DNA of 64,000 nt from Thermoplasmata archaeon (GCA_041499475.1 JBGQKI010000005.1:17709-81708); one strand, 5' to 3'. Positions 15,102 to 51,150 are shown, counted from the stretch's first letter. Numbers and translations are program-made. Notes: a model not told the origin generated them from the sequence alone.

Positions 15102-16392
15102 CTACTTCTGCTGCTCGGTCTCGCCTGCACCCGCTTCGCCCTCGCCCAGCCTGTCCACGAGCGACTTCGCCTGGATCTCGTGCTTCTTGGCCTCGTCGTA
15201 GACCTGCTCGATCTTGACGTCCGCATAGCGCTCGGCGATCATCGACACCAGCGTGTGGTTGAACTCGGCAAGCAGCCCCGTGACCGCCTTGATCGTCGAG
15301 GAGGCCGCAAAGAACTCGATCGTGTTGTCCTCGCGCACCGCCGCACGGATCACGATCTTGTAGCCCTTGACCTTCGTCTCGCCGTAGAACCACGCCTCGC
15401 CCGAGAAGGGGTTGTACGAGACGAACTCGCGGACCATGTGCACATCGTGGGACAGCACGACCGACTTGCACACATCGAAGATGTCCTTGTGCTTCACATA
15501 GGGCGGCAGCTTCGTGATCGTGTAGACCTTCGAGTCCTTCTCCTGCAGCTCGTTCTCGATGAGCCGCTTCAGCATCGCCGTGTTCGCGTGCTCCTTGGTG
15601 AAGAAGAGCGGGCAGACGACCTCGGCCTTGCGCGTCTTCATCGTGACCGACTGCAGCACGCCCTTGTAGTCGCGGAAGCGCACGATGCCGTCGATGTTGG
15701 TCTCCGTGCAGATCTGCGGGTCGAAGTAGAACGCGACCGACGACTTCTCGCCGGGGTTCAGCACGTTCAGCATCACGCGCGCGCCGCTCGTCTTGTAGCT
15801 CGCCGGCTCAATGCGCTGCAGGCGCAGGACATCCTCGTTGTAGTCGATGTCAAGGGTGACCTTCGTCACGACCGCCTCGGTGTCGTTCTTGACGCCGACC
15901 TTGAGGCGCACGAAGCCTTGGAAGAACTCGAGCTGCGAGAGCACCTTGACGTCCTTCGTGGTCGTGGCGGCAAGCACGTCCTGGCGCGTGATGCCCGAGG
16001 TGAGGGCAAGCACCGGCGCGAGGTACTGGCTGATGTCCGCGAATCGGTTCTGCTGGCCGTCCCAGGCCTCGATGATGCCCGCGTAGGCATACTCGATCTT
16101 CTCGATCGCCGTCTGGAGCTTTTCCTGGAGCTCCTTGTCCGGCTCGCCGAAGGTAATCACGGCCGCGTAGAAGTTATTGCCACGCTCGATCACGATCTGG
16201 TTTTCGCCGTAGCCCATCTTGTTGAGCTCGCCCTCGGCCGAGAACGAGTCTTTGATGAACTGGGTGACGGCCGTGAACATCGACGAGACGAGCTCGGGGT
16301 CGCCGAGCTGCTGCTGGCCGATGTCGGTCTTCGAGTAGATCATGCGGCCGTCCTGGTAGATCACGAAAAGCCCCTCAATCACGAAGGTCGCG
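15102..16392 (-). repeat. Conserved cytoplasmic-module coding block, copy 1 of 3 (dispersed direct repeat)
   Basis: Encodes ATFVIEGLFVIYQDGRMIYSK...GEAWFYGETKVKGYKIVIRA...LLAEFNHTL...GAGETEQQK. It is collinear with 22119-23415 and 35155-36440. An exact 31-nt string is shared by all three copies (15371-15401, 22394-22424, 35421-35451). Confidence 0.85.
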
Positions 16393-19300
16393 GCCTTCGC
16401 GGGCTTGACCGGCTCGATGATCGGCGGCGCGGGGCGGGCCGCGGCGGCTGCGGCGGCCACACCGGCTCCCAAGGCCACGGCGGCCGCAGCCGGCGGCAGC
16501 GACGGTTTGGCCGCGGGCACGGGCACCTGGACGACTTCGACTTGGACTTCCTCTGCGGCAAGCGCCGATGGGCGCGCGGGCGCCAAGGGGGCTGCAGGGG
16601 CCGCGGCAATGGGCACGGCCTCGTCGTCCTTCTTGCGGCGCCGCATCACGACGATGCCGACAACGCCGGCACCTAGGGCGGCAAGGAGCAGGATAAGCAG
16701 CAGCAGCGGGCTGGAGGCCACCGACGGCGACGCGGGGGCGACCACGCTGGTTTGGATCGTTTTTTGTTCGCCCTGGCCGCTCGGGTCCGTCACGCGGAGC
16801 GTGACTGTGGTCGTCCCGGCTTTGAGGCCCTTGAGGTGCAGCGTCCACACCGGCCCATCGTGGGTGACCGAGACGCCGAGCACTTGGCCGTCGCCCGAGG
16901 TCGCGAAGAAGAAGAGGTCCGGGAAGTTGTCGTCCGGGTCGGCCGCGAAATTGCTGTCCATGACCAGGGTGACCTCCTTGCCCTCGTCCACGCTGAGCGA
17001 GGCCGGGACCTTGCCAGAGGCAAACAGCGGCGGCAGGTCGGCCGCCCGCAGGCGGATCGTGTAATTCTGCCAGACTTGGATGAGACCGTCGGAGAGCTCC
17101 AGTTTCACGTTGAACACGGTGCCGTCGGCGGTGCCCGGCGGGATCTGCCAGTGCACGGTGTGAGCCGAATCCACCGTCATGCCGTCGGGCGCAGCGCCAA
17201 GCGCCACCGTGAGCTGGTCGCCGGTGTCCGGGTCGCTCACGAGCGCCGCGTAGGTGTACGATTGGCCGGGCGTGCCGTTCTGGACCGGGAACGAGTTGAA
17301 GAAGGGCGCGCGGTTCGCGGGGTTTGAAACGCGCGTGACAGTAAGGACGAAGGACGAGTCCGTGTGGGACAGCCCGTCCGAGACGCGGAACGAGATGTTG
17401 TACACGCCGTACGAGCCCGTCGTGGTCGGCCACACAATTACGCCGGCCGAGCCGATCGACATCGCGTTCGGGCCCGACAGGAGCGTCCACGTCCACGTGT
17501 CGCCGGTATCGCTGTCCACGAGCGTTGGCGCCCACTCGTAGTTGTCTCCAGCGTGGATCGTCGTGATCGGCGTCCCCGTGATCGCCGGGACATCGTTGAC
17601 GCGCAGCGGGATGGTGAGGAGCGCCTCGTTGCCCGTCGTGTCGAAAACATGGAGGGTGAGCGAGTAAGTGCCCGGCGCGATGAATTGGAACGAGAATTGC
17701 GCGCTCCGGATCACCTGAGGCGTTCCGTAGGTAAACCGCCATTCGAACACGAGCGCGCCGGGGACGTTGTCCGTCGAGCCTGATGCATTGAGCGTGACCG
17801 TGTCGCCCTCGTTGAACGGCCCGGGGCCGCCGGTGACGCTGATGGCGGGCGGGGTCACATCGAGCGCCCGGAGGGTGTGCTCAAGGGTCGCCATGTTCCC
17901 CGTGCGGTCGTAGACGCTCAGCGTGATGTTGTACGCGCCGGGCTCCGCGGGCGTGAAGTCCGTGACCATCCCAGAGAGCGACCATGGGCCGCCCGGGCCG
18001 TCGATGTTCCAGTCGAAAGTGCCGTTGGTGCCGCCGTCCCAATAGGCGTCGTTGTCGGTAGATCCCGAAGCGTCGAGCGTGATGCGCGCGTCCTCGTTGA
18101 CCGTCGCATTGACGCTGAAGGCGGGGACGGGGTTCGTGGTGTCTTCCACCCAAAGCGTGAAGTTGACCGAGTTCGCGTTGCCCGCGCGGTCCGTCACGAC
18201 GAGGTTGATATTGTACCCGCCCGGGGTGTCGAAGGTGTAGGAGGGGCTCGACCCGGTGAGCGTCACCAGTGCAAGCCACCTCGCCGGGTCGAAGTTCCAC
18301 TGGATGTTGGGGAGCGGGTCGAGCTCGGCAATGAGGTTGCCCGCAAAGGTGTAGGGCACATCTTCGTTGACGAAGAACTCGACAAACGCGGAGAGGTCGG
18401 GCGCGCTGGAGTCGACCCAGAAGTCCCAGGATACGACCGTGACGTGGCCGGCCTCGTCGTACGCCGAAACATTGAGCGTGTAGTGGCCATCGGCGAACGC
18501 GGTCGTGTCGACGATCCAGCTGCCGCTGATGTTGGTGAGGTTGCCGGTGTATGACCAGCCGCCGCCGACCTCGCTTGCCGCGTACACCACCCTTGTCAGG
18601 TTGAAGTCGTCCGAGGCGGTGTAGGTCACCTGCGTCCCGGGGAGCGTGTAGTTCAAAATCGGCGAGGTCCGCATAAGGGAGGGTGCGGAGCCGTCGATGT
18701 AGAATTTCCAGGTGTACGTCGCGCTGTTGTTCAGCGAGTCGTTCGCGAAGAACACGATCGTGTGATTGCCGGGCCCGAGCCCGAGGAAGCCGGTGTCAAT
18801 CGCCCAGGGCAGCGTCGTGTTGAGGAACGGCGTGCCGTCCACGGTGTAGCGCCACGCGAACAGGTGCGGGTCGCTCACATTGGCGCGGATGACCACGCCA
18901 GCCTGGAGCGCCGGGAACCCGAGCGCCGGCACACTCGAGAAGACGGGCGCCGTCGAGTCGAACTCGAAGGAGAAGGTGCGCACCACCGTCGGCACGGCAA
19001 GCGTGGCGTCGAGGATCGTGTTGTCCTTCGCGGTGATCGTGATGTTGTGCCACCCGTCCGCCCACCCCGTCGTATTGATGTCGTGCGGGTAGGTGAGCGC
19101 GCCCGTCACGGTCGTCTTGTCGTCAAAGAAACTCACCGTGTCGAAGAAGTTCGAGACGGAGAAGTTGAGGACCGTGCCCGCGCGGACCAGCGACCTGTCG
19201 GGCGGGCTGGTGAGCGCGACCGCCGGGGGCCACGGGTCCATTAGCGCGTAGTTGTCGTTCTTGCCGCCGCCGATCGGGTAGACGGGCGCGTCCTTGATCC

Positions 19301-21881
19301 CGTCGTGGCCGACGAGGACGTTCTGGCCAGGGCCCGTCTTTTCATCCACAAACCCTCCGGCCGCGTACGCATAATAGTTGCCGGCCGCCGGGTAGCCCCC
19401 GTCCCAGGTGCCATATCCGTTCGTGTTGGAGACCGCGCCCCCGTAGAAGTTATTGTGGACCACGGTGATCGCATAGCAGCCCGTGTCCACATAGAACGAG
19501 GTCGTCGAAAGCGAGACATAGGTCGAGTTGTAGGTTCGGTAGTTGGGCGAGCTGATGAGGTACGCGCCCCTCGGCGAGCCCGCGGCGAAGGAGCCGTTGC
19601 GCACCGTCACATTGTCCGAGCTGTCGAGGTACAAGCCCTCCGCCGCCGGGTTCATCGCCGTGACGTTCGAGTAGAGCACGTACTGCGAATAGTAGTTGTA
19701 AAAGCCCTGCGAGGTCGAATTCAGCGACAGGATGTCGAAGTAGCTTACGTTGTTGGAAGATTGGGTGAAATAGCCGCCCCCAATGGCGAGCGACCGGGTC
19801 ACCCGGACGAATGATGAGCCGTCCACCGAAAACGCGTTCCAGAGGATGCTCGGCATCCCTATGTTCGACAGGTTTACGAATTGGCTGTTGTAAATGTACG
19901 CCCCCTGGCCGATATTATGGCCAATGAAGGTGTCCAGCGTGACGTTGTTCGAGGCGGCCAAATAAAATCCATATCCGCCGCCGATCTGGCCATACACGTC
20001 GAGCCCGCTTACGTTCACGTCCCGCACCGTGTCCAAATACAGGCCCTGGTTGAGGTTCTGCGCGATCCCCGTGGCATTGGAGATTACGATGCCCTTGGTA
20101 CCCACGAAGCGCAACGGGGTATCGGCGGTCACCCACACGTCCCGGACCGTGATATTTGCCGACCGGGAAGCCTGGATGGCCACCGCGTTGTAGGTGGACT
20201 CGTTGATGCCCGAGACCAAGATGTTGGACGAATTGAAGATGAAGACGAGCGCGGCCGTCGAGGGCACGCTCACATTGGTCGTGTTGGAGACGAAGTAGAC
20301 CGGCTTGCCATCCGCGGTGTTGTCCGAGGTGATGTTTTGCCACGTGCTGGGGCCGTCAAGGTTGTCAATGTACCAGTTGATCGGGCGGCTCGTGTTGACG
20401 AAGGTGTTGTTGGAGATTTGGTAAAACTCGCCTGTAATGGAAATTCCCGTGTAGGCGACATCCTCGAATCGGTTGTTTGCAAACACCGGGCCGTACTGGT
20501 ACGACCACAAGCTCATCCCGTACTGCACCCGGTAGAAGGTGCAGCCGTCGAATACGTTGCCTACACCCCCGTACAGGATCACCGCAGAGTCGCTGAGATT
20601 GGAGAAGGTTACGCCCTGGACGTGGGCTGAGCCGAGGCTGTCGATAAAGAGCCCTTCGACGGAACCGTTGACGGTGCCGCCTGTCCAGTTGAGCAGGCCG
20701 TTCGTGTGGACGGCGTACCCGCCCGAGATGTTGCTGAGGCTGGTGTTGACAAGCGTCAGCAGCCACGTGCCCCCCAGCGCGAAATAAATCCCGTCGTTGG
20801 GCGTATCGGCAAAGGTGGAGTTGGTGATCGTGAGGTGCTGGCCGTAGGTCCACTGGACGGGCAAGGAGACGTTCCGGAACGCTCCCCCGTTGAGGTACAT
20901 CAGCATGGAAGCGCCCGACTGGGGCCCAAGGCCGGTGCCCGTATCGGTCACGTTCAGGCCGTCGAAGACAACCGTCCCGCCCGTGGTCGAATAGAAGGCC
21001 GTCGTCACGTTGTGAATCGTAAAGTTGCGGAAGGTCGTGAGCGTGTCGTACACGGCCCACCAGACTCCGTACGTCGCGTTCTCGATGAAGACGTTTTTCA
21101 GCGTGCTGTTTCCGGCGCTGAGAAAGTAATAAAGGGCGGCGCGGGAGGCGCTCGACCCGTAGAGACTTACGTTCGCAACGCGGGCGCCCGGGCCGCCGAG
21201 GATCAGCTTCCAGGTCGTGGTAGCGCTCGATGTATTGACCTGGAGGCCATCGATGCTGATCCCTGTCCCCAGCGAGTAGAACCCGTCCTGGGAGTTCGTG
21301 ATGTTCACGCCACGGACGTTGAGGCCACTCTGAAGGCAAAGGCACCCGAAGCTGTTGTTGCCTTGCAGCCTCAGGTCGACGAGGGCGGCGCGCGCCCCGG
21401 TCTGGGCGTCCATCCCATAATTTGTGCCTACGAGCGTCATGCTGCTGATGTTGATGTCGGAGCCGCGCAGCGCGAACGGGGCGTTAACCAGCAGGCCGTA
21501 AACGATGACTCCCTTTTGCGATTCTCCCACGAGCGAGATGCCGTTCGCGCTGATGGTCCAGTTGGCTTGGTAGGTGCCGTTGTAGATCTTCACAATGTCC
21601 CCGGAGGTGAGCGGGAGCAGCTCGACTTCGAGGATGGTCTTGAACTGGCAGTTCGCAAGGGATGTCGCGGGGTAGTCGTCGTCCACCTCGATGTACCGCA
21701 GCGGGCAGTTGCTCTGGCCCCAGCCGGCCGAAGCGGGCGTCGAGAAGGCGGCAAGTGCGGCGATCGCGATCAGAAGAATCGCCGATGCAAGGCCGAGGCG
21801 AAAGGCCATCCGCGCGCGACTGTTTTGCGACCTTTGAGAGGCTTTCGAACTTGCGGCGCGAGCGCTGTGCTGGCCAGTCAT
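15102..21881 (-). CDS. Giant type-I membrane surface protein 1 (beta-helix + 3 Ig-like repeats + PKD/cadherin-like stalk + TM + conserved cytoplasmic module)
   Basis: 2259-aa ORF. The N-terminus is basic and then hydrophobic (MAFRLGLASAILLIAIAALAAFSTPASAG). About 800 aa are PbH1-type beta-helix turns, including STWQNITSDNTADGKPVYFVSNTTNVSVPSTAALVFIFNSSN. Three 85-95-aa Ig-like repeats follow PWPP (nt 18400-19236). PKD-like motifs are present (TLDASGSTDND, TLNASGSTDN), as are two cadherin-like He_PIG-type units (..AAPDGMTVDSAHTVHWQIP..). The TM helix is SPLLLLILLLAALGAGVVGIVVM followed by RRRKKD (nt ~16646-16710). The C-terminal ~430-aa module is shared with the next two genes. ATG 21881 has a GAGGGG element 8 nt upstream. 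Confidence 0.9.
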   Translation of the reverse strand: MTGQHSARAASSKASQRSQNSRARMAFRLGLASAILLIAIAALAAFSTPASAGWGQSNCPLRYIEVDDDYPATSLANCQFKTILEVELLPLTSGDIVKIYNGTYQANWTISANGISLVGESQKGVIVYGLLVNAPFALRGSDINISSMTLVGTNYGMDAQTGARAALVDLRLQGNNSFGCLCLQSGLNVRGVNITNSQDGFYSLGTGISIDGLQVNTSSATTTWKLILGGPGARVANVSLYGSSASRAALYYFLSAGNSTLKNVFIENATYGVWWAVYDTLTTFRNFTIHNVTTAFYSTTGGTVVFDGLNVTDTGTGLGPQSGASMLMYLNGGAFRNVSLPVQWTYGQHLTITNSTFADTPNDGIYFALGGTWLLTLVNTSLSNISGGYAVHTNGLLNWTGGTVNGSVEGLFIDSLGSAHVQGVTFSNLSDSAVILYGGVGNVFDGCTFYRVQYGMSLWSYQYGPVFANNRFEDVAYTGISITGEFYQISNNTFVNTSRPINWYIDNLDGPSTWQNITSDNTADGKPVYFVSNTTNVSVPSTAALVFIFNSSNILVSGINESTYNAVAIQASRSANITVRDVWVTADTPLRFVGTKGIVISNATGIAQNLNQGLYLDTVRDVNVSGLDVYGQIGGGYGFYLAASNNVTLDTFIGHNIGQGAYIYNSQFVNLSNIGMPSILWNAFSVDGSSFVRVTRSLAIGGGYFTQSSNNVSYFDILSLNSTSQGFYNYYSQYVLYSNVTAMNPAAEGLYLDSSDNVTVRNGSFAAGSPRGAYLISSPNYRTYNSTYVSLSTTSFYVDTGCYAITVVHNNFYGGAVSNTNGYGTWDGGYPAAGNYYAYAAGGFVDEKTGPGQNVLVGHDGIKDAPVYPIGGGKNDNYALMDPWPPAVALTSPPDRSLVRAGTVLNFSVSNFFDTVSFFDDKTTVTGALTYPHDINTTGWADGWHNITITAKDNTILDATLAVPTVVRTFSFEFDSTAPVFSSVPALGFPALQAGVVIRANVSDPHLFAWRYTVDGTPFLNTTLPWAIDTGFLGLGPGNHTIVFFANDSLNNSATYTWKFYIDGSAPSLMRTSPILNYTLPGTQVTYTASDDFNLTRVVYAASEVGGGWSYTGNLTNISGSWIVDTTAFADGHYTLNVSAYDEAGHVTVVSWDFWVDSSAPDLSAFVEFFVNEDVPYTFAGNLIAELDPLPNIQWNFDPARWLALVTLTGSSPSYTFDTPGGYNINLVVTDRAGNANSVNFTLWVEDTTNPVPAFSVNATVNEDARITLDASGSTDNDAYWDGGTNGTFDWNIDGPGGPWSLSGMVTDFTPAEPGAYNITLSVYDRTGNMATLEHTLRALDVTPPAISVTGGPGPFNEGDTVTLNASGSTDNVPGALVFEWRFTYGTPQVIRSAQFSFQFIAPGTYSLTLHVFDTTGNEALLTIPLRVNDVPAITGTPITTIHAGDNYEWAPTLVDSDTGDTWTWTLLSGPNAMSIGSAGVIVWPTTTGSYGVYNISFRVSDGLSHTDSSFVLTVTRVSNPANRAPFFNSFPVQNGTPGQSYTYAALVSDPDTGDQLTVALGAAPDGMTVDSAHTVHWQIPPGTADGTVFNVKLELSDGLIQVWQNYTIRLRAADLPPLFASGKVPASLSVDEGKEVTLVMDSNFAADPDDNFPDLFFFATSGDGQVLGVSVTHDGPVWTLHLKGLKAGTTTVTLRVTDPSGQGEQKTIQTSVVAPASPSVASSPLLLLILLLAALGAGVVGIVVMRRRKKDDEAVPIAAAPAAPLAPARPSALAAEEVQVEVVQVPVPAAKPSLPPAAAAVALGAGVAAAAAAARPAPPIIEPVKPAKAATFVIEGLFVIYQDGRMIYSKTDIGQQQLGDPELVSSMFTAVTQFIKDSFSAEGELNKMGYGENQIVIERGNNFYAAVITFGEPDKELQEKLQTAIEKIEYAYAGIIEAWDGQQNRFADISQYLAPVLALTSGITRQDVLAATTTKDVKVLSQLEFFQGFVRLKVGVKNDTEAVVTKVTLDIDYNEDVLRLQRIEPASYKTSGARVMLNVLNPGEKSSVAFYFDPQICTETNIDGIVRFRDYKGVLQSVTMKTRKAEVVCPLFFTKEHANTAMLKRLIENELQEKDSKVYTITKLPPYVKHKDIFDVCKSVVLSHDVHMVREFVSYNPFSGEAWFYGETKVKGYKIVIRAAVREDNTIEFFAASSTIKAVTGLLAEFNHTLVSMIAERYADVKIEQVYDEAKKHEIQAKSLVDRLGEGEAGAGETEQQK
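18400..19236 (-). repeat. 3 x ~85-95-aa Ig-like coding repeats (gene 1)
   Basis: Units are delimited by ...FDSTAP / ...IDGSAP / ...VDSSAP and begin right after YALMDPWPP. This is the same family as the 17- and 27-copy arrays in genes 2 and 3. Confidence 0.75.
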
Positions 21882-22118: not shown

Positions 22119-23415
22119 CTACCGCGGCTCTTGCTCCGTCTCGCCGCCGTCGAGCTCCGACTGGCCCATCTTCCCCATAAGCGACTTCTTTTGGATGTCC
22201 TGCTTGATCTCCTCGCCAAACTCGGACTTCAACTTCATCGTCGCGTACTTGCGCCCAATGAGCGAGTTCAGGGTGTGGTTGAATTCCGCAAGTAGCCCCG
22301 TGATCGCCCGGATCTGGGTCGAGGCCGCGAAGAACTCGAGCTTCGATCCGTCCGCGATCACCGAGGCTCGGATGACGATCTTGTAGCCCTTCACCTTCGT
22401 CTCGCCGTAGAACCACGCCTCGCCGTGGTAGGGCTCCTCGACGACGAAGTCGCGCACGAGGTGCACGTCATGGCCGAGCACCACTTCCTTTGCAAGCGAG
22501 AAGACCTCCGCCCACTTCACACCCTCGGGCAGCTGCGTGACCGTGTAAACCTTCGAGTCGCGCTGGTCGAGCTCGCCCTCGACGAGGCGCTTCAACATCG
22601 CCGTGTTGGCGTGCTCCTTGGTGAAGAAGATCGGGCACACGACTTCGGCCTTGCGCGTCTTCATCGAGATGGAGTGGACCGCACCCTTGGCGTCGCGGTA
22701 CCGCCCGACCCCGTCGATCTGCGACTCGGTGCAGATCTGGGGGTCGAAGTAGTAGGCGACCGAGACCTTCTCGCCCGGGTTGAGGACGCCCAACTGGACT
22801 TCGCTGCCCTGGAACTTGTAGGTGTCCGGCTCGATGTGGTGCAGGCGCAGGACATCTTCGTTGAAGTCGATCGAAACCGTGACCTTCGTGATGACGCTCT
22901 CCGTGTCGTTCTTCACGCCGCACTTGAGGCGCACGAAGCCCTGGAAGAATTCGAGCTCCGAGGGCATCTTGACGACCTTCTCGGTGAGCGCGGCCTTGAC
23001 GTCCTCCCGCGATCGCCCGGCGGTGAGCGCGAAGAAGGGCTCCACGTACTGGTCGATGGCCTCAAGCGAGGTCGTCGAGCCGTCCCAGTCCTCGATGATC
23101 CCGGCGTAGGCGTTTTCGATCGTGCGGATCGTCTCGCGCATCGCCTCCGAGAACTCGTCGGTGGGCTCGCCGTAAATGATCGCCGCCATGAAGATCGAGG
23201 TGCCGCGCTCCATAAGGATCGTGTTCTCGCCAAAGCCGAGGCGGTTCAGTTCCCCTTGCGCCTGGAACGAGTCCTTGATGAAGGACTGGACGGCGGAGAA
23301 CATCGAGGACACGAGTTCGGGGTCCTCGAGCTTGACGTCGCCCGCGTCGAGCTTTGAGAAGACCATTCGCCCGTCGCTGTAGATGATGAGCGCCCCTTCG
23401 ATCACGTAAGTGTCC
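22119..23415 (-). repeat. Conserved cytoplasmic-module coding block, copy 2 of 3
   Basis: Encodes DTYVIEGALIIYSDGRMVFSK...GEAWFYGETKVKGYKIVIRA...LLAEFNHTL...DGGETEQEPR. Confidence 0.85.
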
Positions 23416-26400
23416 TTGCGCTTCTCGGCGCCGGCGGCCAAGGGCGCTTGCTGGATGATCACGCGCTCGGTGGGGGCCTTGGAGGCCGTCTCGAGCGCGC
23501 TGCGCGCAACTTCGCCGGCCGCACGCGAACGGCGCAGCGACACCGCAAGGCCGACGGCGCCCACCGCGCCGCCGGCGAGGAGGAGCAGGAGCATCCAGAG
23601 CGGGAAGCCTGGGGGCGCCGCGCGCTCCTTCACCGCCGCATTCACGGTGACGGTTGCGTTCTCGGACTTGGCGTTCGACGGGTCGCGCGCGACGAGGTTG
23701 AAGGTAACCGTGCCCGTTCCGGTGACGTTGAACACGAGCCATGTGTTCACTCCGTCGAACTCCACCTTCCATCCAAGGATCGTGGGCACCTTTGCCCGGA
23801 CCTGCAAGTCGCTGTCGTTCATCACGAAGGTGAGGTTCGTGTCCACGTCGTCGCGGTCGTGCCAGTAGTCGCTCACCTTGACCCGCACGACGTCGCCCTG
23901 GGTAACATCGTTGATCGTCAAGAGCGCGATGTAATTGGGCACCGCATCGGGCGGGTTCCTGAAGCGGACCGTGAATTCCTGCGTCGACGATTGCTTGCCG
24001 TCGTAGGCCGTGATTGTCACGGGCACCAGGCGCTCGAACACCTCAAGGCCTTCGGGTTGCCACGGGGGCATCCACGAGAGCCGGCCTGTGCCGGAGTCGT
24101 ACGAATAGCCGTCCAGGCCCGAAATCACGATGGTGATGTTGTCGCCGTCCTGGTCGTGGACCTTGATATCGTAGAGGTACGGCGTGCGGACGCGTGCGTC
24201 TGTCGGGGGCTCCGAGTCGAAGACGGGTTTGTGGTTGCCCGCAAGGACTGCAGGGTCGACAACATATACGGTGAACTGCCGCAGCACCGTCGTTAGGCCG
24301 TCGCTGATCCCCACCGTCACGGAGTAGTTCCCGGCAGATCCCGCCCCGGGCGTCCACACGATCGACCCGCCGGCGATGGTCATGCCAGGCGGGCCATCCA
24401 CGATCGAGTAGGTGACCGAGGCGTTCTCCGGGTCGGTTGCATTGGGGGTCCAAACCCACGGGTCAGTCGTGGCCACCTCGGCGGGGGGTTGCGTGCCAAT
24501 CGTGGGGGGTTCGTTGACGGTCAGGTGCGAGACAATCTTGTTCCAGTTGCCCGACGCGTCGGTGACATTGAGTTCGACGGTAACCGTCTCGCCGCGCAGC
24601 CCTACATAACTCGACGAGCGAGCGATGTCCGAGCCGGTGCGCGTCGCATTGTGGAATGTCCACACGTAGGTCCAGTTTGCGACGGTGTAGCGTGGGTCGT
24701 TGTCCGTGACATTTGCCGTGAAGAGCGCCGGGATGAGTACATCGACGACGGTGGGTCCAATCAGCGTGACCTCCGGCGGCGTGATGTCCCTTACATTGAC
24801 GACCACGTACCCCACCGCCGAGTTGTTCTGCGGGTCGGTAACCGTGACCGAGATGTTGTAGAGGCCCGGCGTCGTGAAAATCCAGGTGATATTTGGCCCA
24901 AAGCTCGTGAGGTTTGCCGCCGGCGAGCGCCAGGTCCAGTTGAGCGTGCCGTTGCCGTTGTCGATCGAGGTCTGGTTGATGTTGACGGGCGTGTCCTCGT
25001 CGACGTTATAGAAGGTGACCGGCAGCGAGAGCGACGGCGGCGTAATGTCGAAGATCGTGATGTTGAAGATCGTGCGGTTCGCGTTGCCGGCGGGGTCGGT
25101 CACGACGATGTCGATCGCGTACTGGCCCGGGTCCGTGAACGTCCATGTCGTGTTCTGGCCGTACACGCTCGTAAGGACCTGGAGCCGCGAAGCCGGGTCG
25201 AACTGCCAGGTGTAGTTCAGTTCGCTTGCAAGGGCCGTGAAGTCGCTCGCCGACCCGTTGAAGGCGAACGGCGTGTCCTCGTTTCCGCCGTACGCCATCG
25301 GGAAGGTCGAGGGCAGCTGCGGGGCCGTATTGTCGAGCAGGACGAAGCGCGTAACCTCGTTCTGGTTGCCCGCCGCATCGACGGCGCGGAACACGAAGTC
25401 ATAGTCGAGGTTGTCCTCGCCCTCCGTGGTGAACGTGAAGGTGAAGCGGCCCGAGCCGTCGTCGGTCAAAGCGACCGGCACGCCCCGCAGGAAGAGGACC
25501 GCCGTGTACGTCGAGGTCTCCCCACTCACGCGGAACACAATCGGCACGCCGCGCTTGATGTAATGGACGGCGGACAAAAGCGTGAGCGAATCGATCGCCG
25601 GCGGCGTGCTATCGATCGTGATGTTCGTGCGCAGCTGCACGCCGTTTCCCGCGAAGTCCACCGCCTGGATCACGTAATCGTAGAACCCGTCGGCCCAGCC
25701 CGTCGTGTTGAGCGTGAAGTTCGCCACAAACGGCGAGAACGACGGCGTGCCCGCGACCTTCCACTCCGCGCGCTGCAAGTTCGCTTCGGTGATCGTGAAC
25801 GTCCAAGGCTTCCCTGCCTGGACGGTGGACCCGCCCACCGGGTTTACCGTGATCCGGGGCGCCGTCTTGTCGACGCGGAAGACCGAGGTGAGCTGCTGCG
25901 CATTTCCCGCCGCGTCCGTGGCTGTAATCATGAACGTGTGCAGGCCGTCGGTCAGGTTCGTCGAGTTGTAGTCGTAGCCGGCAAAGAGCGTGAGGGGCGC
26001 CCCGTCGAGCGTGACGTTGACGACGCTGAGGTGGGCGTCGGTCACCGCGAAGTCGATCAGCACGCCGCCGGCAAGCCAAGTGTTGTTCGCCGGCGAGAGC
26101 AACTGCACCTGCGGCGGCGTTGAGTCGACCGTGAAGTTGAAGAGCCGCGCAACCGAGTTGCCGGCAAGGTCGGCCGCGAACAGCGTGATGTTGTAGTTGC
26201 GGTCGAAGTAGCCTGTCGTGTTGATCTGGAACGGCGCCCCCATCACGACGTCAGAGGTGCCGTTGTTGTACGATACGTTTCGCAGGTTGGCGTCGCTGAT
26301 CGTCCATAGGAGCAGCGTCCCGGCCCGGACCACCGACCCGTTCGCGGGGGTTACGAGCGTGATGCTCGGGACCGTCGAGTCGATGACCATACTGAAGTTC

Positions 26401-29400
26401 ATCCAGGCCTCGTTGCCCGCCTGGTCCGTCGCGTGAACCGAGATGGTGTAGTTCGCGTCGGGCCAGCCCGCCGTCGAGATGTCGAAGGGCGCAAGCAGCG
26501 CGAAGGGGCCGCTTCCGTTGGCGTAGGTGACCGCGCTGAGGTTCGTGTCCACCACCGTGAGGTCGATGGTCGTCCCGGCCACGACGACCGCGCCCGCCGT
26601 GGGCGAGTTCAAGGTGATCGTCGGGGGCGTCGAGTCGATGACGATCTGAGCCGCAACTGCCTTCGAATTGCCGGCAAGGTCCGTCGCGCGCACGGTCACG
26701 GTGTAGGTCCCGTCGGCCCACGACGTGGTCACGATGTCGTAGGGCGACGCCAGGGTCGCCGGGGTGCCGCCGTTGTCCCACACCACTGTGTTGAGGTTCG
26801 CGTCAGCCACGGCAAAGTCGAGCGTGGCGCCTGCCTTCACCGTCGCCCCGCTCGCCGGCGAGGCGAGGGTAACGGTGGGCGGCGTCGAATCAACGGTGAA
26901 GCCGTACGTCGCCGACTTCAAATTCCCGGCCAAGTCCGTCGCGTTCAGGCGCAGCGTGTAAACGCCGTCGGACCACCCCGTCGTATTGATGTCGAAGGGC
27001 GAGACAAGCAAAGTCGGCGTCCCGCCGGTCGTCCAGTTGACGGCCGCCAGGTTCGCGTCCGCGACCGAGAGGTCGATGGTGGTCCCGGCCGGGATGTACG
27101 CGTTGTTCGCGGGCGAATTCAGCGTGATCGACGGGGGGTTCGAGTCGACGGTGAAGGTGTAGCTTGAAAACCGGCGGTTGCCCGCAAGGTCGGTCGCGTT
27201 CACGCGGAGTGTATAGACGCCGTCAGCCCAACCCGTCGTGCTGATGTCGAAGGGTGAGGCGAGCGCGGTGGGCGCACCCGCCACCGTCCAATTCACCGTG
27301 TTGAGGTTTGTGTCGCTAACGCTCAGGTCGATCGTCGCGCCCGCCACGATGTAGGACCCGTTCGACGGCGAGTTCAACGCAATCGAAGGCGCCGTCGAAT
27401 CGACGGTGAAGGTGAAGCTCGAGAAGCGCAGGTTCCCCGCCGAGTCGGTCGCGTTCACACGCACCGTGTAGACGCCGTCAGCCCACCCGACCGTGCTGAT
27501 GTCGAAGGGCGTCACGAGCGCCGTGGGCGCTCCGCCCGTCGTCCAGTTCACCCCATTCAGGTTGCCGTCGGTGACCGCCAGGTCGATCGTCGTGCCCGCC
27601 GTGATATACGAATTGTTCGCGGGCGAGTTCAGCACAATCACCGGCGGGCCGCCGTCAACCGTGAAGGTGAAGGTCGAAAAACGCAAATTGCCCGCAAGGT
27701 CCGTCGCGTTCACTCGCACGGTGTACACGCCGTCAGCCCACCCCGTCGTGCTGATGTCGAACGGCGAGGCCAGCGCCGTCGGGGCCCCGCCCGTCGTCCA
27801 ATTCACCGTGTTCAAGTTCGTGTCGGCCACGGAGAGGTCGACCGTCGTGCCCGGCGTGATGAACGAGTTGTTCGTAGGCGAGTTCAGCGTCACCGCAGGC
27901 GGCGTCGAGTCGACCGTGAAGGTGTAGCTCGAGAAGCGCAGGTTCCCTGCAAGGTCGGTCGCGTTCACCCGCACGGTGTAAGCGCCGTCCAACCAGCCGG
28001 TCGTGGAAATGTCCCAGGGGGAAGCAAGGGCCGCCGGAGCGCCACCCGCCGTCCAGTTCGCCGCATTGAGGTTCGCGTCGCCAACAGTCAGATCGATGGT
28101 CGTGCCCGCGGGGATGTAGGAGTTGTTCGCGGGCGAATTCAACGTAATTGCCGGCGGGCTGCCGTCCACCGTGAAGGTGAAACTCGAAAACCGCAAATTG
28201 CCCGCCAGGTCCGTCGCGTTCACCCGCACGGTGTACACGCCATCCGCCCACCCCGTCGTGCTGATGTCGAACGGCGAGGCCAGCGCCGTCGGGGCCCCCG
28301 CCGTCGTCCAATTCACGGTGTTCAGGTTTGCGTCGGAGGCCGCGAGGTCGATCGTCGTCCCCGGCGTGATGTACGAATTGTTGGACGGCGAGTTTAGCGT
28401 GATCGTGGGCGCGATGGAATCGATCTTGACAAAGAGGTTACGGGTCGCCGTGTGGCCGAGCACGTCCGTCGCGTTGACCGTGACCGTGTAGTTGCCGTCC
28501 AACCACCCCGCCGTCGAGACATCGAAGGGGGACGCGAGCGCGTTCGTGGCCGAGCCGTTCGTCCAGGTCGCGCCGGACAGGTGCGCGTCGGTGACCGCGA
28601 AGTCGAGCGTCGTCCCAGGCGAGATGAACGTGTTGTTCGCCGGCGAAACGACGACGATCGAGGGCGCGGTGAAGTCGACCTCGAAGTGGAACAGGCGGAC
28701 CGCGACATTGCCCGAAGTGTCGTTCGCGCGGATCGTTACATTGTAGGACCCGTCCGCCCAACCGGAGGTCGAGATGTCGTATGGCGAACTGAACGCGTTT
28801 GCGCCCGACCCGTTGTCCCAGGTGGCGCCCGCGAGGTTTGAGTCCGACACATCGAAGTCGAGTGTCTGGCCCGGCTCGAATACGGAGTTGTTGAGTGGCG
28901 AGTTCAGCGTGATCGTGGGCGCTGTCGCGTCGATCGTGAAAGTGAACACGCGTGTCGTCGAAAGTCCCCCGGTGTCGTTGGCCAACACCGTGATGTTGAA
29001 CGTCGCGCTGCCCCACCCCGCAGTCGAGATGTCCCAGGGAGCGCTAAGCGGGTTTGGGCCCGAGCCGTTGTCCCAATTCACGCTCGACAGGTGCACGTCC
29101 GAGACCGTGAGGTCGATCGTGGTGCCCACTGCGATGAACGAGTTGTTCGCGGGCGAGTTCAGCGTGATCACGGGCGGGGTCGAGTCAAGTTTGAAGAGGA
29201 ACCTGCTCGAGGCGTTGTTGCCTGCCGTGTCCCACGCCGCGATCGTGATGTTGTAGTCGCCCTCCGCCCACCCCGCCGTCGAGATGTCCCATGGCGCCGT
29301 GAGCGGGTTGAACCCCGACCCGTTGTTCCAGGTTACGTTAGCAACCAGGTGCGCGTCGGCCACGGTGAAATTGAGCTGCGTGCCCACCGCGTAGGTCCCG

Positions 29401-32400
29401 CCCACCGTCGGGCCGTCCGCGGTGATCGTGGGGGACGTCGAGTCGATCACAAACAGGAACCACGGCTGTTGCGTGTAGCCGGTCGAGTCGTTGGCCCATA
29501 TCTGGACGAAGAGGTCTCCGTCAGCAAAGCCCCCCGTCGAGATGTCGAACGGGGTCGTGAGGTTCGTCGTCGTGCCGTTGTTGAGCGCGACCTGCACCGT
29601 GTCGAAGTAGAACGAGATGTTGAAGTCGAGCGTCGCCCCGGCACGGAAGACCGTCCCGTTCGCGGGGCCCACAAGCGTCACATACGGGGGCCAAGGCTCG
29701 CTCAGCGGGTAGCTGTCAACGCGCCCGTAGGGGAGGACGAGCGAGGTGTCGTTGATGCCGTCGGGCCCCGCCGTGCTCTGGGACGCGCCCTTGTAGAGGT
29801 CCGTGTGGGTGGTGTTCGACCAGTAGTTGCCCCCCGACGGGTACCCGTTGTGGAAAGCGTTCGAGGTCCCGATGTCGTACATCGAATTGTTGGCCGTGAA
29901 GAAGTTGTTGTGGTAGAAGAGGTTGAAGTCCGCGCTCGAGGAGAGGTAAATCGTCCAGGTCGAATTGGAGATCGTGCCGTCCTGGAACGTGTTGGAATCG
30001 GCGGAAGACAGGTAGTAGGCGTAGTATTGGAAGCGCAAGGTGTTCCCGCGGACCGTGTTCGCGTTCGAAGAGCTAAGCTCGATGGCGACGCTGCTGGAGT
30101 TGGTGATGTTGTTGTTCTCAACGACGCTCGAATACGTGTAGTAGAGTGTGACCGCGGAGTAGTAGCCGCCGTTGTTCATGCGGTTGCCCGAGACGAGGTC
30201 CCGATTGGCCTGGTCGCCGCTGTTGCCGCCCAAGTAGATTCCATAATAGAGTGAGGAGAGGATGGTGTTCCCCACGATCCGCACATCGTCGGTGGCCTCC
30301 GTGTAGATCCCCATGTACCCCTGGGAATCGAACAGGCTGCCCGTGATGTTCACGTACTGAGACCGGTACTCGAGGTAGACGCCGTAGTAGTTCCGGAAGA
30401 ACGTGGAGTTCGTGATGTTCAGCCGTGTGCTGAGGTAGGCGTAGAGGCCATATTGCGTTGCGTTCGAGAGGTACACCCCACTGATGGTCGCCCGCGTGTT
30501 GTTGGAGAGGTAAATGCCGTAGGCCGTTGCGTTTGCTGTAATGTTGACGACGCGATTGTCGGCCCCCCAAGTCAGGGCCGCCCCCATGTGCGAGCCATTC
30601 GAGGCCGAGTCGCGCGCCGTCGAGTTGAACGCCTTCACGAAGAGGGTGTCGTAGTAGTTTTGGCTCATGAGCGTCGTCGAGCCAAGGTCCATCGAGGTGC
30701 AGTTTACGGCGACGATCCAGCCGGCCGGCCCCCGGAACGTCACGCCCGTCGCGTTGACATAGTAGCGCACCGGGCCCCCGTTGATCGTGTTGTCCGACGT
30801 CCATGTGTGCATGAACAGGGTCTCATCGGTCACGGGGTCGGGCGATGAGAAGATGACGGCGTACGGCTGGGAGCCCGTGAGGTTGAAGATTGAATTGTTG
30901 CTGAAGGTCCAGTAGCGCGACTCCTGGAAGTAGACCCCGTAGTGCGTGTGCGTCACGACGTTGTCCGTGACCGTGATGAAGGATGAGTAGCTCCCGTAGA
31001 GCGCGTAGTCGGTGCCGTTGGTGAACATGTTCCTCGCCACGGTGACGCCCGTGGTGCTGTAGAGGTAGACGCCTTCCTGACCGCTGCCATTGATCAGGTT
31101 GTCCGCGATGAGGCCAGCGCCGACGCTATAGAGGTAGACCGAATGGTAGTTCGTGCGGTGCATCGTGTTGTTCGCGATGCGCCCGACGCCCGTGGAAGGG
31201 CCGCCACCCTGGATATACACGTGGTAATAGTAGTCGTCCGAAAAGCTCGCGTGCTCCGCGCGCGTGCCCGCGTACGCATAGCTGTAGATGCCGTAATAGG
31301 CCCCGCCGTACGATCCCCCGTCGACCCCGTTGTCGAACGCGGTTGCCGCGCTCATGTAGACGTCCTCGGTGAACCCCGAGATGTTCGAAGATACCGTGTT
31401 GTTGCGCGCAAACGCGTCGAACTGGACGCCGGCGTCCGAATAGGGCGTGTCGGGGGTAAAGTTGCCCCCCTGGACCCGGTTCCAGTCGGAATAGGCGAAG
31501 GAGGCGCCGCCCGCGCTGTTCTTCCAGACCGTGAGGTCGGCGAAGGTGTTGTTGTTGCTCAAGTAGCTCACCAAACCCCATTCGTTTTGGCTGAGGTTGG
31601 TGCTTGAGAAGGTGGACCAGTTGGTTGCAAGGAGGAAAATCCCGCCCTGTCCGCGCGAGATGGGGTTCGTGGCCGTAATGTTGAGGCCGCTCGAGTTCGT
31701 CGCGATGATGAGCCCCGCGCTGCCGGTGAACGAGACCCCCGTGGCGTTCACGAAGAACCGGATCGGGTAGCCGTTGGCCGTGTTCGATGTGTCCACATCG
31801 TGCATCCCGTAGCCGATGTCGGTTATGGGCACCGAGAAGACGAGCCGGATCGGGGCCGTCTGGTTCGTGATGTTGTTGCCGCGCAGCGTCCAGAACTTGG
31901 AGTTCTCGATGCGGATGCCCGCGCTCGCGCCCCCCGCATTGGCGATCGTGTTGTCGATAAGGACTCGGTAGTCGGAGAAGTAGCCCTCGATGCCGCCGGA
32001 AACCATCCCGTAGATCCGGTTCCGTGCAACGACCCCGCCTTGGCCGTTGTAGAGATAGATGCCGTAGTCCGCGCCGCTAAGGACATTGTCCTCGATGAGG
32101 CCGCGCCCGCAGAAGTAGCAGTAGATGTCGTAGTAGTAGGCCTGCCCCATCGTGTTGTTCGAGATGCGGTAGTCTTGCGTTTGCGGCGAGCTCGTGTAGC
32201 CAAGGTAGACCTGGTAGTAGTAGCTGAAATTCATCGTGTTGCCCATGACCCAAGGTCCAAAGAATTGGTAAGAGTATACCTCGTAGTAGCTGTCGTTCAG
32301 CGTTGAATTGAGGACCCGCAGGTTGGCGGTGCCATATTGAGCCTGGATGCACGTGCTGAACTGCATGCAGTCCCCGGATTCGAAGGTGAGGTTGTTTGAT

Positions 32401-34790: not shown

Positions 34791-34883
34791 CCTTCGCTTC
34801 CCCCCGGTGAGCACAGCCTGGATCGCGAGGCAATATGGGGAATTGCCTGGCCATCCAGAATATGGCGGCCACCCCAAGCACGT

Positions 34884-35031: not shown

Positions 35032-38000
35032 TCAGAGGCCGCCGCCGCCTTTGCCCTCGTCGTCGGGCTCGGGGGTGTCGCGATCGCCCTTGGCGCCGCC
35101 GTCACCCTTGGGCTCGATGGCCGGAGGCAAAGGAGCCCCGGAGGCGCCCTCGCCCGCCTGCTCCGTCTCGCCGCCGGCAAGGTCCGCGCTCGACATCGTC
35201 GACATCAAGGTCCGCTTCTCGATCTCGGCCTTCGCCTGGCTGTCGAAGATCTGCGCGATCTTGAGGTCGCTGTACTTCTCGATGACCATCGAGTTCAGCG
35301 TGTGGTTGAATTCCGCCAGCAGCCCCGTGATCGCCTTCATGTTCGTGGAGGCCGCGAAGAACTCGATCGCGTTGGTCTCCTCGATCACCGTCGCGCGGAT
35401 GACGATCTTGTAACCCTTGACCTTCGTCTCGCCGTAGAACCACGCCTCGCCGTGGAACGGGTTGTACTTGGTGAACTCGCGCACCATCTGGACGTCGTGC
35501 GCGTTCACGACGCTCTTGATGAGGTCGAAGACGTCCTTGTGCTTGATGTACGGCGGGATCTTCTGGATCTCGAAGACCTTCGAGTCCTTCTCGCCAAGCT
35601 CGGCCTCCACGAGGCGCTTGAGCATCGCCGTGTTGGCGTGCTCCTTCGTGAAGAAGAGCGGGCACACGACCTCCGCCTTGCGCGTCTTCATCGCAACCGT
35701 GTAGAGGACCCCCGAAGCGTCGCGGTAGCGGCAGACTCCGTCGATCTGCGACTCCGTGCAGATCTGCGGGTCGAAGTAGTACGCGACCGACGACTTCTCG
35801 CCGGGGTTCAGCACGCCGAGCAGCACCTTCGCCCCCGCAGTGCGGTAGGCCGCAGGCTCCACGCGCGCGAGCCGCAGGACGTCTTCGTTGTACTCGATGT
35901 CGACCGTCGCCTTCGTGATCACGGAGGGTGTGTTGTTCTTGATCCCGCACTTGAGGCGGACGAAGCCCTGGAAGAACTCGAGTTCCGACAGCATGAGCAC
36001 TTCCTGCTTTGTCGTGGCAAGCTGCACTTCGCGGCGCGTGATGCCGGCGGTGAGCGAGGTGATGCCCACGAGCTTCACCTCCATGTCCGAGAAGTGGTCC
36101 ATCATCCCGTCCCACTCCTCGATCATGCCGGCGTAGGAGAGCTCAAGGTTCTCAATGGCCGCCTTCATCTGGTCGTGGAATTCCTGGTCGGGCTCGCCGT
36201 AGACGATTGCGGCCATGAAGACACTGCGCCCGCGCTCGATGATGATCTGGTTGTCGCCATAGCCCATCTTGTTCAGCTCGCCCTCAGACTGGAACGAGTC
36301 CTTGATGAACGAGGTCACGGCGGTGAACATCGACGAGACAAGCTCGGGGTCCTCGAACTTCGCCTGGCCCATGTCCGTCTTGGCGTAGAGCATCCGGCCG
36401 TCCTTGTAGATGACAAAGAGGCCTTCGATCGTGTAGGTGATCTTCTTCTCGGCCGGGCCGGCCGCGAGGGCGGCAGCCGCGCTTGCAGCCGCGGCGGCTT
36501 GGCCCGTGAGGACGACCGTGCCGGCCTCGCCGGCGATGGTGGGCGCCGCGACCCCCGAGACGATCTGGGCTTTGGCCGCGGCCGCACCCTCGCGCCGCTT
36601 CTTGTTGCGCCCACGGACGAGGAGGAAGAAGCCGGCGGTGCCGGCTGCCACCGCAAGGCCAAGGAGCGGAAGGAGGCCGATGGTGCCCTCGCTGCCTGCC
36701 GGGCTGCCGGGCGGGGCCGTCACCCGGACGGTGATGTCGCGCGTCGCGTTCCCGCCGGAGGCGTCAGAGACCTTGATCCGCACCGTGGCGTTCCCGACCT
36801 GCAACCCGGCCACCACGAGGTCCGCCCCGGCCGAGGTCTTCTCGACCCGCGCGGAGGCCACCGACGAACTCACGAAGGTCACCTCATAGAGCAGGCCGGA
36901 AACGGCGTCGTCCTGGTCCTGGACGTGGAGCTCCAGGTGTTCGATGATCTGCTGGTCCTTCTCGACGGCGAGGGACGCCCACGCTTGCGGGCCGTCGATC
37001 GTTGGGGCGTGGTTTCCGCCCGGCCGCCAGCGGATGGTGTAATTCTGATAAACGGTGTTGTACCCGTCCCAGACCGACACGTTGACCGTCCAAGTTTGCT
37101 GCGGGCTCAACGAGGTCACGCCGTGGACCCATGTGATCAGGCCCGTCACGCGGTCGATGCTCATGCCCGCGGGGTACACCACCAGCGCGTAGTACAGGAC
37201 GTCGTTGCTCGGGTCTTCCGCATTCACATCGTAGGTGTACATCACGCTCGGCAGGACTTCCTGGACGGGCGTCGACTTGATTTCGGGCGGCAGGTTCGTC
37301 GCGCTCGGCGGCAGCGACACATTCGCGGCCGTGACGATCGTGGTGGTCGCCCACCCGTCCGACAAGGTGAGGTTCCAGTCCTTGGGGCCATACCCGGTCG
37401 GAGTCCACCGGATGTGCACAACGCGGGGCGCGGTTAGCGTTTGGGTCACGGCCCATGGTGTCGAGGCAAACGAGATGTTGATCGAGTCCCCGGCGTCGCT
37501 GTCGGCGACCACCAGGTCGAGGTCGTAAGTTGTGCCCGAGACCATGGCCTGGGGTAGCGCCGTCTGGAGGGCCGGGACGTCATTGATGTACACGGCGAAC
37601 TCGCGCGAGGCCGCATTTCCCGAGGAGTCCCGCGCGGTGAGGTTCACGACGAACGCCCCCGGCAGCGGGAAGATGTGGTGAGCGCTTGACCCGGTGAGCG
37701 TGTCGACCGTTGACCCGGCCGCCTTCACCAACCATGTGTACGTGATGAGCGACACGTTCTCGAGGTCGTTGTCGCTGACCACCGACGCGTCAAAGGTGAG
37801 GTTGTCGCCCGCGTTGGCGCGCCCCGCGATGCTGACGCCCGAAAGGACCGGGGCCGTCCGGTCGCGGACGCGCACGACCACCGAACTCGCGTTCGAGAGA
37901 CCTGCCGGGTCGACGACCGTAAGCCGGACGGTGTACAGGCCGGGGTTTGCAAACACATGCGTAAGGTCGAGGCAGGGGTAGAGCGCCCCCACGCCGGAGG

Positions 38001-49908: not shown

Positions 49909-49920
49909 ATAAGGGTTCCC
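49905..49920 (-). promoter_or_regulatory. BRE/TATA-like box for giant gene 3
   Basis: The minus strand reads GGGAACCCTTATATGGGGCA. It is similar to GAAACCCTTATGAAGG (441-456) and, on the plus strand, AGAACCCTTAAATC (10045-10058). Its centre is about 44 nt upstream of GTG 49866. Confidence 0.4.
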
Positions 49921-50170
49921 GAAGGCCGCCGCGAAGCGGGTACTGTGGCTCGGCCGACGAAAAGCGCCGTGTCCAACGCGTTTTCCTATGGAAGCGCTCC
50001 CGTTTTTCGCGCGGGCCGGTAAGGAGTTGATCCGACTTCGCCCTGCCTTCACCCGGTCACCTCGCGAAAGGCCGATCGGGACTCTCGCGGCCCCGCGCGC
50101 CTTGCCCGCCGCGCAACTGCGGCGCACCGCTTGGCTTGAATTCTGCGGCCGCGCCGCGCCCCCCTTGAGT

Positions 50171-50182
50171 AAACTCTTAAGA
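50171..50182 (+). promoter_or_regulatory. TATA-like box for the sdh operon (leaderless geometry)
   Basis: AAACTCTTAAGA is centred about 28 nt upstream of GTG 50205. Confidence 0.4.
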
Positions 50183-50204
50183 CGGTCGAGAACGCTCCAA
50201 AGGC

Positions 50205-51143: not shown

Positions 51144-51150
51144 AGGGGGC

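Follow-up and report, generated by a model that had tools for sequence, protein, structure and literature searches.

A predicted longin and adaptin-appendage-like module at the C-terminus of giant surface-type proteins in a Thermoplasmata archaeon

The DNA considered here is a window of 64,000 nucleotides from a Thermoplasmata archaeon (GCA_041499475.1, JBGQKI010000005.1:17709-81708), and our subject is a protein module of about 430 residues with which three of its genes end. The window has 65% GC, contains an Nre gene, and finds its closest relatives in Thermoplasmata/Thermoplasmatota genome bins. About 35 kb of it is taken up by three tandem genes on the minus strand, here called gA, gB and gC (Table 1). 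Every one of them encodes an N-terminal hydrophobic anchor, a single C-terminal hydrophobic helix, and an ectodomain of right-handed beta-helix/NosD repeats, many immunoglobulin (Ig)-like repeats (Big_13), PKD and He_PIG domains (Pfam). The three products look like giant, heavily glycosylated, adhesin-like surface proteins.

A tblastn search of the window finds exactly three copies of the module. They are 61–66% identical to each other, a level that chance cannot account for, whereas the ectodomains of the same proteins are only 26–41% identical. The module is under strong purifying selection. A first-pass annotation of this stretch had already reported the three copies, and all the peptides it quoted occur in the minus-strand translation of 22122–23414, which is the in-frame extent of the gB copy (stop codon 22119–21). 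Its limits had to be corrected: the start at 23415 is one base out of frame, and the two other copies have the boundaries given in Table 1. The gC copy reaches 35035 through an additional C-terminal end of about 40 aa that is rich in Gly, Asp and Pro.

Table 1. Positions of the three giant genes and of the parts of the gB module, counted from the first letter of the window (TM, transmembrane; ORF, open reading frame; AF2, AlphaFold2 model; E, strand; H, helix; residue numbers are those of the gB module unless marked as aa of the whole protein).
Feature	Position	Strand	Description
gA	15102..21881	minus	2259 aa; TM helix 16644-16706, linker 16392-16643, module 15105-16391
gB	22119..34877	minus	4252 aa; signal/anchor, beta-helix (NosD), ~20 Ig-like (Big_13), PKD, He_PIG, C-terminal TM helix, module (ORF + Pfam)
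gC	35032..50253	minus	5073 aa; TM helix 36616-36681, linker 36442-36615, module 35035-36441
gB TM helix	23535..23606	minus	aa 3758-3781, FPLWMLLLLLAGGAVGAVGLAVSL, then RRSR (hydropathy scan)
gB juxtamembrane linker	23415..23534	minus	flexible, 40 aa
Longin core, residues 1-103	23106..23414	minus	E3-12, E17-22, H32-51, E58-61, E64-70, E74-82, H86-102 (AF2)
Longin helical extension and connector, residues 104-147	22974..23105	minus	H114-117, H120-131, H136-147 (AF2)
Ig-like beta-sandwich, residues 150-258	22641..22967	minus	~10 strands; FFQGFVRLK...YYFDPQIC... (AF2)
Junction VVCP[IL]FFT and alpha/beta platform, residues 259-390	22245..22640	minus	order a-b-a-b-b-b-b-a; holds GEAWFYGETKVKG and ITGLLAE (AF2)
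Platform elements, residues 271-390		minus	H271-281, E284-294, H301-313, E318-325, E330-339, E345-353, E358-365, H368-389 (AF2)
Tail, residues 391-431	22122..22244	minus	short strand, two helices, acidic end KSLMGKM...GGETEQ; last residues disordered (AF2)

The fold of the module was predicted for the gB copy. An AlphaFold2 model built with an alignment of 57 sequences reached a mean predicted local distance difference test score (pLDDT) of 89.3 and a predicted template modelling score (pTM) of 0.69; residues 1–148 modelled separately gave a pLDDT of 84.4 and a pTM of 0.78. The first-pass annotation had divided the module into three sub-regions, a roadblock- or longin-like domain, an all-beta Ig-like sandwich and an alpha/beta platform, and had named structure prediction followed by a fold search as the check. 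The model agrees with the three sub-regions and their sizes, and the Foldseek search returns longin, sandwich and platform folds rather than unrelated ones. The sandwich and the platform, which together we call the appendage part, were modelled with a pLDDT mostly above 90.

Conservation is unevenly spread over these parts. Mean identity is 50–52% in the appendage part, 39% in the longin part, 32% in residues 104–147 and lowest (23%) in the tail. The best conserved stretch is the junction between sandwich and platform, with a mean identity of 81%; a GEAWFYGxTKVK hairpin and the start of the ITGLLAE helix are also strongly conserved. Invariant columns at all three places are shared with Asgard relatives of the module, and E332, W334, Y336, T339 and K342 of the hairpin are invariant residues of the family's own. 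The hairpin may be the binding surface of the module.

The module belongs to a large family. A word-indexed search returned 54 homologues (E down to 1e-233), none of them annotated. When its profile was run against 1.84 billion representatives of clusters at 50% identity, 5447 matched with E<=1e-3; 454 of these, and thus at least 454 clusters, matched strongly (E<=1e-30). In nearly every case the module is the last part of a protein of 600–4900 aa (median 1416 aa and maximum 4911 aa among the top 140). Among the 65 top representatives with an exact CPxFFT, 56 have a TM-like segment no more than 300 aa ahead of the module, and the linker has a median length of 37 aa. When one genome per species was scanned, 59 loci came up. 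Among them the full module is confined to bins of Thermoplasmata/Thermoplasmatota, some few of which are labelled 'Methanobacteriota' or 'uncultured archaeon', and single bins can hold 5–8 paralogous module loci. One homologue of 984 aa, on a contig of 3.1 kb (locus L041, CAZURA010000268.1), is binned as 'uncultured Bacteroides sp.'; the contig is probably archaeal and placed in the wrong bin, so that we do not count it as a bacterial member.

Parts of the module occur on their own. Stand-alone proteins of 280–310 aa consist of sandwich, platform and tail only. In Asgard archaea, residues ~139–383, sandwich and platform, are 29–35% identical in Loki/Promethearchaeota, Hel- and Hermodarchaeota, and they are also found in Thorarchaeota. 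Judged by this similarity, the appendage part is homologous to an Asgard family. The Asgard relatives end in a CPxC...CxxC Zn-ribbon and combine the appendage with a range of N-terminal partners: multi-pass membrane/coiled-coil regions, SBBP propellers with a TM helix, NosD beta-helices, TPR, PCI, SPFH, thioredoxin and Ras domains. The longin is missing from both the stand-alone forms and the Asgard relatives found here; what had seemed a longin in one Asgard relative (L051) proved to be a helical extension only.

The C-terminal end of the gB copy, GGETEQ, is not a motif of the whole family. Only the closest clade has it (12 of the 65 top representatives with an exact CPxFFT), and the tail of the wider family reads approximately [RK]xL[LM][IL][DE] followed by acidic residues. 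Many members (for example P0063, P0074, P0088 and P0094) have E/D-x-R-x-L-L-I/L-D/E and acidic residues within their C-terminal 25 residues. In eukaryotes, acidic dileucine signals are read by the sigma-alpha hemicomplex; the archaeal motif resembles such a signal on paper, which we mention as a curiosity only.

On which side of the membrane does the module lie? In all three proteins a run of positive residues (RRRKK, RRSR or RGRNKKRR) comes right after the TM helix, hence the C-terminus should be cytoplasmic. The linkers that follow are rich in Ala and Pro and differ in length (84 aa in gA and 58 aa in gC) and in sequence, which is not conserved. N-X-S/T sequons occur 3.4–4.4 times per 100 aa in the ectodomains (4.1 in gB) against two per whole module, a depletion of roughly eightfold, and the stand-alone homologues are soluble proteins without TM helix or signal peptide. 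Together these features of the sequence support a cytoplasmic location.

One could also argue that the module is extracellular, or that it is an enzyme or a signalling output domain. The topology is predicted from sequence, and an active site or a ligand-binding site might conceivably be made up of the invariant residues Cys260-Pro261, Asp286, Glu332, Trp334 and Tyr336. We consider this very improbable, for the following reasons. First, the positive-inside residues, the sequon depletion and the soluble stand-alone homologues all speak against an extracellular module. Second, Walker A, NKxD, HRD and CxxC motifs are absent from all three copies, as the first-pass annotation had stated for P-loop and kinase-type motifs, so that nucleotide-binding, kinase and metal motifs are lacking, and no enzyme family in Pfam or NCBIfam matches the module. 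Third, all fold matches are to non-catalytic domains. Like that annotation we infer an interaction platform rather than an enzyme, in agreement with everything tested.

The fold matches are more specific than this. With the N-terminal domain as query, Foldseek places the sigma chains of the adaptor protein (AP) complexes AP-1/2/3/4, zeta-COP and the N-terminal domains of mu chains at ranks 1–16 (TM-score 0.52–0.69, root-mean-square deviation, rmsd, down to 3.2 Å). Examples are 6owo_S (TM-score 0.65/0.68) and 9ddt_B (target-normalised TM-score 0.68, rmsd 3.2 Å). Only at rank 17 does an Asgard Roadblock2 structure appear (9jq8, target-normalised TM-score 0.46–0.49), followed by the longins of Fuzzy/Inturned, Mon1-Ccz1 and TRAPP. 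In both models the topology is bb-a-bbb-a(a) with further helices after it and without an N-terminal helix. Roadblock proteins are built a-bb-a-bbb and, unlike longins, start with a helix. Of the two folds that had been offered for this domain, a roadblock/LC7 assignment (PF03259) thus fails on the missing N-terminal helix, the rank of 9jq8 and Pfam matches that stay below threshold, whereas the longin is borne out. Among the 57 aligned members, sub-threshold matches were to Robl_LC7 in four (best E 0.013) and to Fuz_longin_1 in one (E 0.042), and neither the module nor any of the 57 has a sequence match to Clat_adaptor_s (PF01217). On the predicted models, the N-terminal domain is a longin of the sigma/mu-adaptin type rather than a roadblock domain.

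The C-terminal half gives an equally specific result. In a Foldseek search against the PDB, the first 13 ranks are taken by the appendages of COPI-gamma, AP-2 alpha and AP-2 beta2 (E 4e-10 to 3e-8, probability 1.0), led by COPI-gamma (1pzd, 4.3e-10) and including beta2 as 1e42. These matches align over 244–256 columns and span both sub-domains. Lower down follow the mu chains of AP-2, AP-1 and AP-3, BBSome BBS7/BBS1, AP-1 sigma, TRAP-beta and cohesin. The first-pass annotation had compared the layout with eukaryotic mu-homology and appendage domains. The appendage half of that comparison holds on predicted structure, with weak support from sequence. A mu-homology domain we reject: the C-terminal half has an alpha/beta platform with three helices instead of being all-beta, and the mu-chain matches (E 4e-8 and weaker), which rank below the appendages, cover the longin and beta regions with an rmsd above 20 Å. 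We hold the predicted fold assignment as a whole, a longin followed by an appendage-like sandwich and platform, with high confidence.

Sequence comparison was carried out at the level of profiles. A beta2-appendage query, checked against 2iv8_A, gathered 439 homologues, and 30 archaeal appendage sequences were aligned to 36 metazoan beta-adaptin ears with hhalign. The score is 32.1 (P=0.0018, probability 14.6%), with 189 colinear columns over both sub-domains. Two reversed and 30 column-shuffled controls scored 9.4–21.4 over at most 53 columns, so that the true score lies above all 32. This is a weak signal that exceeds noise yet is no proof of homology. Matches to the appendage families at curated thresholds (PF02883 with PF09066, PF02296 or PF08752) were found neither for the three copies nor for the 57 members. 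Below threshold, Cohesin matches the sandwich region in 14 of the 57, and Alpha_adaptinC2 (PF02883) matches two Asgard relatives (E 0.0011 and 0.0053).

Taken together, these results lead us to read the module as a cytoplasmic, non-enzymatic interaction hub attached to its cargo. Several findings weigh against this reading. Searches of Pfam, NCBIfam and PDB sequences with the module and its profile returned nothing significant, and the hhalign probability is low. The target-normalised TM-score to the appendages is only 0.34–0.42 at an rmsd of 13–15 Å, so that only about one sub-domain superposes at a time; the two sub-domains hence appear to be packed differently in the models than in adaptin ears. 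In the hhalign alignment, which is of low confidence, the residues W841 and Y888 with which beta2 binds its ligands lack conservation. All the structural evidence consists of predicted models. Finally, there is no ESCRT (endosomal sorting complex required for transport), GTPase or roadblock gene in the window, and none beside the stand-alone forms.

Much of this would be expected if the resemblance were one of analogy only. The module would then be a lineage-specific, membrane-proximal scaffold, linking for example the surface layer to a cytoskeleton or membrane skeleton, and would share with adaptors some widespread folds (an Ig sandwich, a TBP-like alpha/beta domain and a bb-a-bbb-a domain) but neither ancestry nor mode of action. 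The absence of any family match above threshold, the unlike sub-domain arrangement, the missing trafficking genes and the generic Ig folds that Foldseek also lists (TRAP-beta, cohesin, FXIII) all fit such a scaffold. It fits less well that of two independent fold searches one specifically ranks appendages first and the other sigma-type longins, that hhalign aligns both sub-domains colinearly with a score above those of all 32 controls, and that a probable sister family in archaea matches eukaryotic appendages strongly. On balance we think analogy alone is unlikely, while giving it more weight than any other alternative considered here.

The probable sister family is arCOG15284, the archaeal 'adaptin appendage regions' with an Ig and a TBP-like fold, for which HHpred gives a probability of 98 to AP-2 beta (2IV8_A) and COPI beta (5NZR_B) (Makarova et al., mBio 2024, PMC10936438). 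Published examples are a Zn-ribbon protein (WP_013898571.1), a membrane protein of the GOLD-TM-appendage type from ESCRT loci of Methanosalsum, and Asgard combinations of Vps28-C, appendage and longin; they were proposed to act as cargo/ESCRT adaptors (PMC10936438). The listed members belong to Methanosarcinales, to a single bin of Archaeoglobales and to Asgard archaea; none is from Thermoplasmata, which are said to have lost such putative ESCRT-0 analogues (PMC10936438). All five AP Pfam domains occur in Asgard archaea, though not fused together (Eme et al. 2023, PMC10307638). Our Asgard relatives carry the Zn-ribbon, and for one of them (locus L049) the source is Lokiarchaeota CR_4, whose genome contributes six of the listed members of arCOG15284. 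By this indirect route, the appendage part of the module probably belongs to arCOG15284. A literature search found no paper on the architecture seen here in Thermoplasmatota.

What could the module interact with? The best lead to a partner is Ras-like GTPases, based on few cases. In Hermodarchaeota (L056, Ras E 4e-29) and in P0208 a Ras domain is fused to the appendage. In Thermoplasmata, a Ras-family gene (Pfam Ras 1e-36) lies divergently at 270 bp from a module gene of 1428 aa (L013), and in a related locus (L057) a Ras-family gene lies about 3 kb from the module gene. In an Asgard locus (L067) a Ras-family gene adjoins a gene of the module family. These neighbours amount to two probably orthologous Thermoplasmata loci and one Asgard locus and could be due to chance, which again counts against the hub. 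No ESCRT genes were found in four Asgard contexts.

These loci have some features of their own. The fusion proteins (L056:40-2598, plus strand, and P0208) join a coiled coil, a Ras-family GTPase, an appendage-like region and a C-terminal Zn-ribbon in one chain, and their G1 motif reads GDGGVGRT, with Arg where Lys is usual. The two Thermoplasmata GTPases (L013:2110-2712 and L057:3482-4105, both minus) have 201 and 208 aa and polybasic ends (KKKGKFGR and QKKKGLFKK); their genes lie among surface-protein genes with 'WANRY'-type repeats, one of which bears the module. In Promethearchaeota, two tandem appendage-Zn-ribbon paralogues of 787 and 718 aa (L068:4448-9157, plus) stand near a gelsolin-domain gene, and at a different locus (L066) an actin gene lies about 4 kb from an Asgard member of the appendage family.

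One could also argue from the GTPases that the module is primarily a regulator or effector of small GTPases. The longin would be a platform for nucleotide exchange or GTPase activation like Mon1-Ccz1 or Fuzzy/Inturned (CPLANE), the surface proteins would act as receptors through which extracellular contact switches a Ras-like GTPase, and sandwich and platform would confer specificity. The longin fold does match Mon1-Ccz1, Fuzzy/Inturned, TRAPP and Asgard Roadblock2, and the Ras-appendage fusions and Ras-family neighbours at three loci could be read in the same way. Nevertheless, the longin is less conserved than the appendage part and is absent from the stand-alone and Asgard forms, the window has no GTPase gene, and small GTPases are so abundant in Asgard archaea that adjacency there means little. 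A primary role in GTPase regulation seems doubtful to us.

We therefore return to the cargo-attached hub, which we favour with some confidence as an overall reading; the hub function itself we propose only tentatively. The longin, the appendage-like pair and the helical, acidic tail would hang by the Ala/Pro-rich linker from the adhesin's single C-terminal membrane helix. Like the ears of eukaryotes, the appendage part would bind short motifs in soluble partners, and the longin part would dimerise or dock a small Ras-like GTPase, as longins usually do. In this way the surface protein would bring along an adaptor of its own and be linked to machinery in the cytoplasm that sorts, clusters, positions or turns it over, the likeliest machinery being ESCRT-III/Vps4 or a GTPase switch. 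A stronger version of this proposal is that the module is a true homologue of the sigma and ear blocks, united in one chain on the cargo, and that it works together with a Ras-like GTPase, with ESCRT-III/Vps4 or with both in the sorting or internalisation of adhesins or in vesicle budding. This stronger version we judge to be improbable on present evidence.

The remaining features of the window concern the surface proteins and their surroundings. Arrays of Ig-like repeats of about 95 aa form much of the ectodomains (gB 24500-31500 and gC 38000-46000, minus strand; Big_13, E 1e-70), with the consensus ...TITLNSPANNS.I..GTTIDL.V.D.NL....W..G......L.SPFDIST.GW.DG.Y.V.V.ATD.AGN..., and opposite these arrays lie many long spurious ORFs with high GC content at third codon positions (GC3). 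A fourth large surface-type protein of 1417 aa (556-4809, minus) has a Pfam Ice_binding match at residues 556–744 (E 1.6e-65) and no C-terminal module. Directly downstream of the giant-gene array follow two small multi-pass membrane proteins rich in Met, Gly, Pro and Ala (13620-14222 and 14435-14881, both minus; 200 and 148 aa), with no Pfam family for either. Apart from the ice-binding-like protein, the other genes of the window encode a helicase, PAS-histidine kinases, a radical-SAM enzyme, Nre, SdhAB, UbiA, an electron transfer flavoprotein (ETF), an acyl-CoA dehydrogenase and a malate dehydrogenase.

The stand-alone appendage genes have a recurrent neighbourhood (L001:10001-14908, L002, L003 and L064) of RNA_binding (PF01877), the appendage, an Ala/Arg-rich ORF of 160–168 aa, an ORF of 216 aa, a KaiC-like ATPase of 904–919 aa and deoxyhypusine synthase. 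The conservation of this order may merely reflect close kinship of the bins. An ORF of 911 aa in the window (51034-53766, minus) was considered as a counterpart of the ATPase and discarded: it has no similarity to it and is spurious by GC3, the actual genes there being SdhA/B on the plus strand.

Adaptor complexes are a hallmark of eukaryotes. Elements of this kind are already known in archaea, from Asgard genomes and a small number of ESCRT loci in methanogens. Three features seem to be new: their abundance in Thermoplasmatota, the joining in cis of an ear-like region to a sigma-like longin, and their attachment, away from ESCRT loci, to the tails of surface proteins that are giant and glycosylated. 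This widens the known range of adaptor building blocks and makes an ancestral role as receptor-attached interaction hubs plausible. It also offers a function-related handle on giant archaeal adhesin-like proteins that are otherwise unannotated, and the compact soluble domains of about 430 aa, together with the stand-alone forms, are usable for expression, crystallisation and partner screens. If the module were indeed a cargo-borne proto-adaptor, functional adaptor-type machinery would exist outside Asgard archaea and would predate coats.

How does the module compare with known systems? Its nearest archaeal counterpart, arCOG15284, has the same Ig and TBP-fold appendage, the Zn-ribbon of the Asgard relatives resembles that of WP_013898571.1, and a membrane-anchored version is known there as well. 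The proteins of the window differ in that they lack the Zn-ribbon and Vps28-C, carry ectodomains of two to five thousand residues and lie outside ESCRT neighbourhoods. With BBS1/2/7/9 of the BBSome the module shares the pair of sandwich (GAE) and platform, at Foldseek E values of 1e-7 to 2e-5, weaker than for adaptin ears; there, unlike in the module, the pair comes after beta-propellers in soluble coat-like subunits.

Among eukaryotic adaptors, the longins of AP sigma1-4, zeta-COP and the mu/delta N-termini are the best fold matches to the predicted N-terminal domain and have the same bb-a-bbb-a topology with C-terminal helices. The ears of AP-2 alpha, AP-2 beta2 and COPI gamma (1b9k, 1e42/2iv8 and 1pzd) likewise consist of an Ig-like sandwich followed by a platform with the same a-b-a-b-b-b-b-a order. 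These ears are non-enzymatic hubs, and like the module they are attached by a flexible linker. They sit on an alpha-solenoid trunk, however, whereas the module hangs by a linker of 40–84 aa from the TM helix of its presumed cargo, in an archaeon without a known coat. Unlike in the eukaryotic small chains, its longin is fused in cis to the appendage-like region, a combination found in no single eukaryotic subunit.

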